A stretch of DNA of 64,000 nt from Capsulimonadaceae bacterium (GTDB lineage: Bacteria; Armatimonadota; Armatimonadia; Armatimonadales; Capsulimonadaceae): positions 3,072,001 through 3,136,000 of the forward strand of contig OZ244065.1 of assembly GCA_965215505.1 (NCBI GenBank), given 5' to 3'. This document shows positions 4,425-5,584 of this stretch, one piece after another. The position numbers were made by a program, and so were the translations under genes. Below the pieces are notes generated by a model, which saw only the letters and a list, made by a program, of their open reading frames with translations, did no database searches and was not told the origin of the DNA. How positions within the stretch are numbered: position 1 is the stretch's first letter; every line of letters begins with the position of its first letter.

Positions 4425-5216
4425 TCAGCGCCCCCGCTGCCGCATGATCTCGAAGGCGATGACGGCGGTGGCCGAGGCTGTGCCCAGCGAGTGCATCATG
4501 GGCCGCCCGTAGGGGATACGCAGCTTTAGGTCGGCCTGGTCCAAGAACGACCGGGTGATGCCGCGCTTCTCGCCGCCAATCAGCAGGAACAGCGGGGCGG
4601 AGAGGTCGGCCTCATAGAGCGATACGCTGCCGCGCTCGTCGGTGGCACAGGCGACGGCCAGCCCCCGCGCCCGGAAGAAGGCGGCGGCTTCGGCGGCGGT
4701 GTCGGCGAGCGCGGTGGGGATCAATTCGGACGCCCCCGCCGAGGCGCGGGCGACGGTCCCCGCCGCCGACAGCCAGTTCCGGGGCCGCAGGACCAGCCCG
4801 TCCGCCCCGGCGGCATAGAGGGCGCGGACGGACGCGCCGAAGTTGAAGGGGTCTTCCACGCCATCAATCATGGCGACGAAAGCGGGCACCTTCCCTGCGG
4901 CCAGCGTCTCCAAAGCGGCGAAGCGGTACGGGCCGACGCGGGCCAGAACGCCTCCGTGAGTCCGCCCCCCCGCCTGCGCCCCGATGGTCTCCTCGGAGAG
5001 CCGTTCCACGGGCACACCCGCCACCCGCGCGAGCCGTTCCAATTGCCGCGTCTGCCCGTCGCTCTTGCCTTCGCGCAGGAGCAGGCCGTGGACGGCCCGG
5101 TGGCCGCCTTCCAGCGCGGCACTGACGGAGATGAAGCCTTCCAGCAGGGCGTCTTCGGCGGGGGCAGGGTCAGAGGTCTGTTCGTCGCACTGTTCCGAGG
5201 TTTGTTCGTCGGGCAT
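4425..5216 (-). CDS. TrmH/SpoU-family RNA methyltransferase
   Basis: DGVEDPFNFG, IGGEKRGI and SLGTASA motifs; ATG at 5216 is 6 nt after TACAAT. Confidence 0.88.
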   Translation of the reverse strand: MPDEQTSEQCDEQTSDPAPAEDALLEGFISVSAALEGGHRAVHGLLLREGKSDGQTRQLERLARVAGVPVERLSEETIGAQAGGRTHGGVLARVGPYRFAALETLAAGKVPAFVAMIDGVEDPFNFGASVRALYAAGADGLVLRPRNWLSAAGTVARASAGASELIPTALADTAAEAAAFFRARGLAVACATDERGSVSLYEADLSAPLFLLIGGEKRGITRSFLDQADLKLRIPYGRPMMHSLGTASATAVIAFEIMRQRGR

Positions 5217-5249
5217 GGGGCCATTGTACCCGCACGGGAGGGCGGACAC

Positions 5250-5324
5250 AAAAAGAAGCCGCGACTCTCGTCGCGGCCCGGTAAAAGGGGATGAGCAATG
5301 GGAGGTCTTTCGACCTTAGCCACA
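5250..5324 (-). ncRNA. Candidate small regulatory RNA (~75 nt)
   Basis: CATAAT at 5335-5330, AGGUC-GAAA-GACCU hairpin, C/U-rich linker, 8-bp GC stem with UUCUUUUU tail; the downstream gene has its own -10 box. Confidence 0.55.
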
Positions 5325-5343
5325 CCTCTATTATGGTGGGGGC

Positions 5344-5384
5344 AGGTTAAGAGGACGTTAAGAGGCGGTTAAGGTTGTGTTAAG
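5344..5384 (-). promoter_or_regulatory. Four 11-bp-phased CTTAAC direct repeats (Pho-box/OmpR-family-like operator)
   Basis: GTTAAG at 5346, 5357, 5368 and 5379; minus-strand units CTTAACAC, CTTAACCG, CTTAACGT, CTTAACCT. Confidence 0.7.
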
Positions 5385-5393
5385 GTTTAGGAG

Positions 5394-5533
5394 GCCCCCA
5401 CCCCCCGCCCCTCCCCCGCAAGCGTGAGAGGGGAGCATGACAAAAAGGGAAGTTTTTCCTGGAGGCTCCCCCTCCGCCCTTCATCTGACTCCCCATCTCC
5501 CGCTTGCGGGGGAGGGGCGGGGGGTGGGGGTCC
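5394..5533. repeat. Inverted repeat pair (CCCCTCCCCCGCAAGCG type)
   Basis: ccccgcccctcccccgcaagcg ... cgcttgcgggggaggggcgggg. Confidence 0.7.
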
Positions 5534-5584
5534 GCTCCCCTCAGATTGACTTTGCCCGCCGCCGTGTGCTACACTTGCCCTGTC

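Follow-up and report, generated by a model that had tools for sequence, protein, structure and literature searches.

What is transcribed from the minus strand of a Capsulimonadaceae genome where four evenly spaced direct repeats and a -10 hexamer stand shortly upstream of a methyltransferase gene with a promoter of its own? The window analysed is a stretch of 64,000 nucleotides of contig OZ244065.1 (assembly GCA_965215505.1, positions 3,072,001 to 3,136,000), part of a genome that consists of a single contig of 6,177,771 bp with 66.5% G+C, and the locus lies at 5250 to 5384 of this window. A first-pass annotation, made from the letters alone, had proposed a small RNA induced by phosphate limitation. 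The answer that we favour, with reasonable rather than high confidence, is an independent small-RNA (sRNA) gene of the phosphate (Pho) regulon, which would be activated by PhoB and whose product would act in trans, with Hfq, at Shine-Dalgarno (SD) and start regions.

The array occupies 5346 to 5384 and consists of four perfect CTTAAC units at an exact period of 11 bp (5384-5379, 5373-5368, 5362-5357 and 5351-5346). The final unit reads CTTAACCT and is followed after 8 nt, or 10 nt from the end of the hexamer, by the -10 hexamer CATAAT (5330 to 5335), which has no -35 element. The first-pass annotation had described the same arrangement, and both its description and its coordinates are right on the minus strand. 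A two-unit pattern allowing up to one mismatch finds 3 matches in the 64-kb window, each inside the array, where 0.00 are expected by chance (100 shuffles of the window).

In Synechocystis sp. PCC 6803, according to the available excerpt of PMC1906773, the SphR Pho box is CTTAACCT, present in at least three tandem repeats of 8 bp with a 3-bp linker and hence at an 11-bp period; the earlier identification of the last unit with the SphR box agrees with the box as printed there. In E. coli, the same excerpt states, PhoB Pho boxes replace the -35 and are situated about 10 bp upstream of the -10 (PMC1906773). Both marks of a PhoB/SphR-type Pho-box promoter are present at the sRNA locus, namely at least two to three direct repeats with a period of one helical turn (11 bp), and repeats situated about 10 bp from the -10 in place of a -35 element.

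Arrays of at least three units (exact 11-bp period, at most one mismatch per unit) occur eight times in the whole genome and are absent from both the reversed and the complemented control; the sRNA array is the sole one of the eight that has no mismatched unit. The pattern YTTAAY-N5-YTTAAY marks 22 separate sites, compared with 1 and 0 pair matches in two controls. These sites contain two to six repeats with the unit consensus CTTAAY[A/C][C/T]w, and 17 of them have a -10-like hexamer some 10 or some 22 nt further on. For 20 of the 22, the genes that follow were examined, and seven sites lead into phosphate transport or phosphoesterase operons. One is pstS-pstC-pstA-pstB (pstB, 410.8 bits against TIGR00972), where the pstS promoter has two units, 10 nt and TAAACT, a spacing identical to that at the sRNA. 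Another is a DUF47-PHO4 (Pit) operon. Arrays also precede the genes for two large secreted proteins that combine a beta-propeller with a PF04185 phosphoesterase domain, and a group made up of a DUF1559 prepilin-like gene, a beta-propeller gene and a purple-acid-phosphatase-like gene. Two successive arrays immediately upstream of the pst cluster stand before DUF1559 genes that lead into a secreted metallophosphoesterase and a PHP-domain gene. The first-pass annotation had suggested looking for CTTAAC repeats at the pst and pho promoters of this genome, and they are indeed found there, before pstS, the DUF47-Pit operon and four phosphoesterase operons. The remaining array-linked genes encode further DUF1559 proteins, family-less secreted proteins, a phosphoketolase, a glycosyltransferase/Wzz pair, a luciferase-like monooxygenase, an HNH-repeat protein, a DUF6989 protein and a 35-codon membrane ORF; to these is added the sRNA locus itself, and at one site (4,511,799) there is no called gene behind the array.

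The arrays fall into two classes according to the distance from the last unit to the -10, which is either 10 nt or 21-22 nt, one helical turn more. The shorter spacing is found at the sRNA, pstS, Pit, the PF04185 phosphoesterases and the glycosyltransferase/Wzz site, and the longer one at DUF1559-led operons, the 35-codon ORF and the phosphoketolase. At the last of these (954,194, minus strand) a two-unit array stands 22 nt from its -10 before a phosphoketolase (XFP) gene, and the gene that follows has an N-terminus which we take to resemble that of acetate kinase. This array may link the Pho regulon to a phosphate-consuming central pathway. The longest array in the genome, at 210,828-210,888 on the minus strand, has six units, 22 nt and TATGAT, and is followed by the 35-codon hydrophobic ORF MAALFRKRVFNWQFLAAIIVEVIAVVIVKLVTGLF. 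This ORF, equipped with a GGAGGAG ribosome-binding site and a terminator of its own, is a candidate for a Pho-regulated small membrane protein.

Five arrays (at 3,060,462, 3,061,880, 1,293,520, 5,932,966 and 5,387,387) stand before, or within operons with, DUF1559 (SBP_bac_10) genes of the type with prepilin N-terminal methylation, and after most of these genes secreted phosphoesterases come next. The genome contains at least 46 DUF1559 genes, a subset of which seems to be dedicated to phosphate scavenging or enzyme secretion.

The association with pstS extends to relatives. A perfect or near-perfect pair of units (at least 11 of 12 positions) lies within 400 nt upstream of pstS in 10 of 30 family genomes, this one included, and in none of the 30 when the sequence is reversed (maximum 9) or the opposite strand is read (maximum 10). 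At most of these 10 loci the pair is followed by 10 nt and then a TAAAAT or TAAACT hexamer. No pair was found within 400 nt of pstS in the other 20 genomes, and in the copies that were read the DNA upstream is coding. The best candidate for the regulator of the arrays is a pair of adjacent PhoB/PhoR-like genes at 547.8-549.6 kb of the genome, of which the PhoB-like one occupies 548,864-549,553. The best PhoB-like match scores 237.7 bits (cut-off 296.2) and the best PhoR-like match 305.9 bits (cut-off 334.2), where the cut-offs are curated for proteobacterial equivalogs and the PhoR model is phoR_proteo. The genome also encodes phoU.

We read the array as a Pho box, and so as the mark of a Pho-box regulon, because pst and pho genes carry the motif, its unit is the SphR box, PhoB- and PhoR-like genes adjoin one another and phoU is present; from this we infer binding by the regulator and a response to phosphate. 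It has to be asked, however, whether the arrays might belong to another regulator of the OmpR family, for example to an envelope or secretion programme around the DUF1559 genes, so that the sRNA would be real and would answer to some other signal. At least six full-length OmpR-type regulators are encoded in the genome, no CTTAAC array lies upstream of its PhoB-like gene, five arrays are directly before or in operons of DUF1559 prepilin-like genes, and for the glycosyltransferase/Wzz pair, the luciferase-like monooxygenase and the family-less secreted proteins there is no obvious role in phosphate metabolism. Nevertheless, pstS, the hallmark Pho gene, has the motif in identical geometry in this genome and in 9 other species examined; the Pit operon and four phosphoesterase operons carry it too, most of the Pho-linked DUF1559 genes are co-oriented with secreted phosphatases, and the unit equals the published SphR Pho box as given in the excerpt of PMC1906773. 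A different regulon is unlikely, and Pho control of the sRNA is probable.

The promoters resemble those of SphR and PhoB in their unit, here CTTAAY[A/C][C/T], in its repetition two to six times, in the 10 nt before the -10 and in their presence at pst, pit and phosphatase genes. They differ in belonging to the phylum Armatimonadota, and in having a second class with 22 nt to the -10 at most DUF1559-led operons; their binding by a regulator and their induction are predicted.

Past the -10, the DNA reads AAGGTC-GAAA-GACCTC (5317-5302), then CCCATTGCTCATCCCCTTTT, then a G+C-rich 10-bp stem with a GAGA loop and, at its end, TTCTTTTT (5279-5250). A predicted sRNA of about 74 nt would extend from 5323 to 5250, its 5' end being placed by the spacing from the -10 and its 3' end by the U-tract of the terminator. 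As RNA, the sequence past the -10 is GUGG-CU-AAGGUC-GAAA-GACCUC-CCAUUGCUCAUCCCCUUUUACC. In the consensus fold, a 5' stem-loop (5298 to 5323) is formed from outer RUGG/CCAU pairs and an inner (A)AGGUC-GAAA-GACCU(C) hairpin. It runs into the C-rich core CCUCCCAUUGCUCAUCCCCU, which spans the invariant columns of the alignments (5286 to 5305), and is followed by an intrinsic terminator with a 10-bp stem, a GAGA loop and a U-tract (5250 to 5279). The GAAA-tetraloop hairpin and the terminator are at the places predicted by the first-pass annotation, and a terminator scan recovers the 10-bp stem. The RNA has a fold energy of -30.2 kcal/mol (z = -2.9) and scores 80.6 bits against a covariance model of the family (R1). 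An unpaired stretch between the two hairpins had also been proposed. This stands for UGCUCAUCCCCU and the linker, which are the reliably free part of the RNA, but not for CCAU, which pairs with the 5' RUGG in the consensus fold; as CCAU and CCUC of the core are both predicted to be paired, the free seed is shorter.

The suggestion that the RNA is not of a described family holds, as no Rfam family reaches or approaches its gathering score. The best Rfam 15 match that overlaps it is to sucA, on the opposite strand, and scores 17.5 bits where the gathering score is 40 (E = 2.7). The strongest sub-threshold matches, at 5360-5565, are to plant and animal miRNA families and were set aside, being due to a palindrome beside the array and not to the RNA. 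This long, imperfect, G/C-rich palindrome, whose arms measure about 45 nt, fills 5385-5570 between the array and tyrS. The repeat is dispersed, with 62 blastn HSPs in the same genome at, by eye, about 20 or more other places, often including both arms, and it looks like a REP/MITE-type element.

How widely is this unit kept? A blastn search with a 161-nt query finds it at 71-88% identity in 20 of the genus's 23 other genomes; of the three that gave no match, two are 91% and 94% complete and one is 75% complete. The 21 genus sequences align through the array, the -10, the RNA and the terminator. In this alignment the block CCATTGCTCAT is invariant, as is the CC that precedes it, and the C-rich run that follows differs in few copies. 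A covariance model built from the genus sequences finds one strong copy in 32 of 38 other family genomes, in 9 of 10 genera of Capsulimonadaceae-like Armatimonadota. Among 32 genomes of the sister family it gives only two marginal matches (G043 and G052; E ~0.004). Seven weak extra matches (E ~1e-3) were read, and all are plain terminators without the core, so the sRNA gene is taken to be single-copy; one further weak match is the end of a tRNA and not a second copy.

The promoter is kept together with the RNA. All 33 collected copies are preceded by the array and a -10, and four units (at least 5 of 6 positions each) are found in 29 of them, three in 2 and two in 2. In the 12 copies from other genera, too, CTTAAY units at 11 bp are followed by 10 nt and a -10. 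When the printed sequences are read by eye, a -10-like hexamer is seen in 33 of 33, at 10 nt or, in one case, 11 nt; a scripted tally gave 26 at 10, 1 at 11 and 6 at 7, the six being cases in which the regular expression matched at an earlier position. Within the RNA, the core UGCUCAUCCC is retained in 31 of the 33 copies, even where the sequence of the hairpin changes, and about 12-15 nt of it are unchanged across copies. The 5' hairpins of other genera differ in sequence and have the same pairing.

The first-pass annotation had asked for conservation and covariation of the hairpins and the seed in relatives, and both are seen across 33 copies from 9 genera. In the 33-copy alignment, which was fitted to the structure of the model and whose genomes are kin rather than independent samples, 96.6% of cells are standard pairs, compared with 85.8% in shuffles. 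Changes on both sides are found at 14 of 20 pairs, against 6.0 +/- 1.3 in shuffles (none of 500 reached 14) and 2-6 when the partners are slid. The 5' stem-loop (helices 1 and 2) accounts for 5 of its 10 pairs, with 98-99% of cells paired, and the terminator (helix 3) for 9 of 10. A real, independent, non-coding RNA gene is very probable.

The gene that follows, at 4425 to 5216 on the minus strand, encodes an RNA 2'-O-methyltransferase of the SpoU/TrmH family (Pfam SpoU_methylase 83.5 bits, SpoU_sub_bind 48.1 bits). Its proximity raises the question of whether the RNA is a cis-acting 5' leader or attenuator, through which the Pho promoter would feed the methyltransferase by regulated read-through of the terminator. 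The methyltransferase gene is downstream in 28 of the 33 copies, which divide into 20 of the 21 from the genus and 8 of the 12 from elsewhere in the family, and the distance from terminator to start codon is short. However, the terminator is strong and has been kept up by compensatory changes, and the gene has a promoter of its own outside the sRNA (5214 to 5228), of the leaderless type, with (GG)TACAAT, 6 nt and ATG. TACAAT lies at 5228-5223 and the ATG at 5216, as the first-pass annotation had noted, and GGTAYAMT followed by 5-7 nt and ATG is found between terminator and gene in 20 of 21 genus copies. The mRNA would thus be leaderless, having a long leader only by read-through. In 5 of the 33 copies, moreover, array, core and terminator are kept beside unrelated genes. 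Since the methyltransferase promoter is separate and these five units stand beside other genes, a leader or attenuator role is highly unlikely, though occasional read-through into the methyltransferase gene may occur. The unit is best described as INDEPENDENCE from the next gene, a predicted sRNA gene with its own promoter and its own terminator.

Starts of the leaderless type, with 5-7 nt between a -10 and the ATG, are found both at the SpoU/TrmH gene and at a Pho-box-driven phosphoesterase gene at 3,377,040 (TATAAT-AGACGC-ATG). On the other side of the locus, tyrS is nearly of this type, with TACACT, 9 nt and an ATG at about 5585. The family may make common use of leaderless mRNAs.

This geometry bears on a further possibility, that the RNA is itself a leaderless mRNA for a small peptide (MAEVERPPIAHPL...), or has a dual function. 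An RTG is found 6 nt past the -10 throughout the genus, as in the leaderless methyltransferase gene, and several of the changes between copies are at third positions (GTC/GTT, GAA/GAG, GCT/GCC, AGA/AGG, CTT/CTC/CTA). These 'synonymous' sites, however, coincide with wobble or compensatory positions of the hairpin, and ATT, GCT, CAT and CCT never vary at their third positions in a genome of 66% G+C, such that the invariance of the core extends to would-be third codon positions. Outside the genus, 8 of 12 copies have GTG GCT TGA or TAA in this frame and so stop at codon 3; in the window the frame stays open past the terminator and continues for 151 codons into the next gene. It is also disrupted by indels past the core, and in one genus copy a single additional C is inserted within the core frame. 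The first-pass annotation had found no ORF that fits within the unit, and the two that start in the RNA (4868 to 5323 and 5170 to 5325) do run through the terminator and are not conserved; no frame has a conserved start and stop across the homologues, as a small leaderless protein would. On the stop at codon 3, the missing stop, the frame-breaking indels and the fixed third positions, the small-ORF reading was rejected, and a peptide or dual-function RNA is very improbable.

What might the RNA do? Its construction, with a 5' hairpin, a single unpaired C-rich stretch and a U-tailed terminator, is that of a pairing sRNA, and Hfq is encoded in the genome (95.1 bits). The reverse complement of the core UGCUCAUCCC is AGGGGA-UGAGCA-AUG-GG, that is, an SD sequence, a 6-nt spacer and a start codon, so that the seed against SD and start codon proposed in the first-pass annotation fits by sequence.

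The search for targets covered one whole genome, with relatives represented by single loci. No conserved mRNA target of the core was found in the genome itself or at the selected loci of relatives. Across the genome, 295 sites are complementary to the core over 9 or more contiguous nt, which is no enrichment when 10 shuffled cores give 73-976, and RNAduplex energies gave no useful ranking, any G-rich sequence being dominant. The leaders of phoU, pstS, both DUF47-pit operons and the PhoB-like gene contain nothing notable that is complementary to it. The best complement linked to a start codon is a 14-mer at 5,949,100 of the genome, at the 5' end of a gene for a 253-aa secreted protein, where about 0.5 such 14-mers are expected by chance on a rough estimate; this candidate was rejected, since no more than 3 of 23 genus relatives have the gene and the two orthologues read, from the closest relatives, do not keep the complement. 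Three others give partial complements limited to some species: at gyrA, 4 of the 23 genomes examined reach at least 12 pairs and the others have 4-8, the ribosome-binding site GGGATAAGCAATGG of rpsQ was found in 4 of the loci read and is absent from this genome, and a site at a TPR gene is present in 2 genomes and likewise absent here.

In several relatives (for example G017, G013, G008, G067 and G012) the open frame of gyrA is 1034-1825 aa long, compared with 857 aa in this genome, and the N-terminal match is split in two. This suggests that inteins have been inserted in gyrA of these relatives.

That no conserved mRNA target was found leaves room for an RNA that does not pair with mRNAs at all, acting by binding a protein, as a sponge or by its structure alone. 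The 15-nt block is invariant over 9 genera and longer than most seeds, and could itself be a site for protein binding. Against this, the block is the exact complement of an SD-spacer-AUG sequence, a single unpaired C-rich stretch between a 5' hairpin and a U-tailed terminator is the usual build of Hfq-type RNAs in a genome that encodes Hfq, and repeated protein-binding motifs are absent, save for a duplicated GCUCAUCCCC in one distant copy (G070). A non-pairing RNA is distinctly unlikely, and we incline, without great assurance, towards base pairing in trans through the C-rich core.

For the pairing sRNA of the Pho regulon, the following course of events can be proposed. When phosphate becomes limiting, a phosphorylated response regulator of the PhoB type would bind the four 11-bp-phased CTTAAC boxes, which would stand in for the -35, and would recruit RNA polymerase to CATAAT. 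Transcription would start about 7 nt past the -10 and end at the intrinsic terminator. The resulting RNA, about 74 nt long, would have a 5' hairpin, the invariant C-rich stretch UGCUCAUCCCCU, which is unpaired and can be extended to CCCAUUGCUCAUCCCCU, and the U-tailed hairpin of the terminator. Acting in trans with Hfq, this RNA would pair through its C-rich stretch with the G-rich SD and start-codon regions of at least one mRNA, and would thereby adjust the translation or stability of that mRNA, in one direction or the other, during phosphate starvation.

A more ambitious version can be offered tentatively, in which the RNA, under one of the genome's best Pho-box arrays, would be the main riboregulatory arm of the family's Pho regulon, using its 15-nt stretch to shut down phosphorus-costly or growth-related mRNAs when phosphate is exhausted. 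The stretch resembles the 3' end of 16S rRNA and is a perfect antisense of SD-spacer-AUG, but such a role for it is speculative. It is equally conjectural that the targets might include leaderless mRNAs and ribosomal or replication genes such as rpsQ or gyrA.

C-rich unpaired motifs are familiar from RsaE/RoxS of the Firmicutes, where they pair with G-rich SD sequences. The present RNA has a similar motif, but regulators (not Pho), phyla and sequences differ, and it has no Rfam match to such families.

Other comparisons are with RNAs of phosphate stress. In the available parts of PMC6596454, PsiR1 of Synechocystis 6803 is described as having a promoter with putative SphR Pho boxes and as one of the start sites that phosphate stress induces most strongly. 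It is about 500 nt long, is joined in one unit to the gene downstream, has two short reading frames within it and, as far as the same excerpt goes, is not conserved even in a sister strain (PMC6596454). The Armatimonadota RNA is likewise behind Pho boxes, but is about 74 nt long, has no conserved ORF, has its own terminator and is found family-wide, its expression being predicted. PhoS of Bacillus velezensis and B. subtilis, according to the available part of PMC11522486, is a 66-nt sRNA that phosphate starvation induces and that needs PhoP, a regulator of the PhoB type; it is located in the 3' UTR of phoR and activates translation of phoP by pairing at the ribosome-binding site (PMC11522486). 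Compared by description and not by sequence, the Armatimonadota gene differs in being free-standing, behind a four-box promoter and far from the PhoB/PhoR-like genes, and the leader of the PhoB-like mRNA has no notable complement to the core. In Pseudomonas aeruginosa, sRNAs repress phoB but are regulated by LasR, according to the excerpt of PMC12506140. Our literature search found no paper on Pho boxes or sRNAs in Armatimonadota. The best reading of the RNA is as a new family of a known type, a stress-regulon sRNA behind a response-regulator promoter, and it is probably a new regulatory RNA of phosphate starvation.

Nearly all known regulators of bacterial phosphorus metabolism are proteins, as stated in the available part of PMC11522486, and few sRNAs are known in this field. 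As a family-wide candidate the locus is clean, its promoter, seed and terminator being defined, and it belongs to a phylum for which regulatory genetics hardly exists. The arrays also outline a Pho regulon of soil and freshwater bacteria, including some of the enigmatic DUF1559 prepilin-like genes and a membrane peptide of 35 aa, which is of relevance to RNA biologists and to the study of phosphorus cycling in soil bacteria. Because the RNA is short and single-copy and relatives are cultured, the sRNA hypothesis is directly testable.

The position of the gene on the chromosome is also of note. In this genome the sRNA lies 22.6 kb from pstS, and the distance is 10-25 kb across this genome and at least seven relatives from two genera (G001, G008, G014, G020, G021, G063 and G065). 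The sRNA is thus linked, loosely but conservedly, to the pst cluster.
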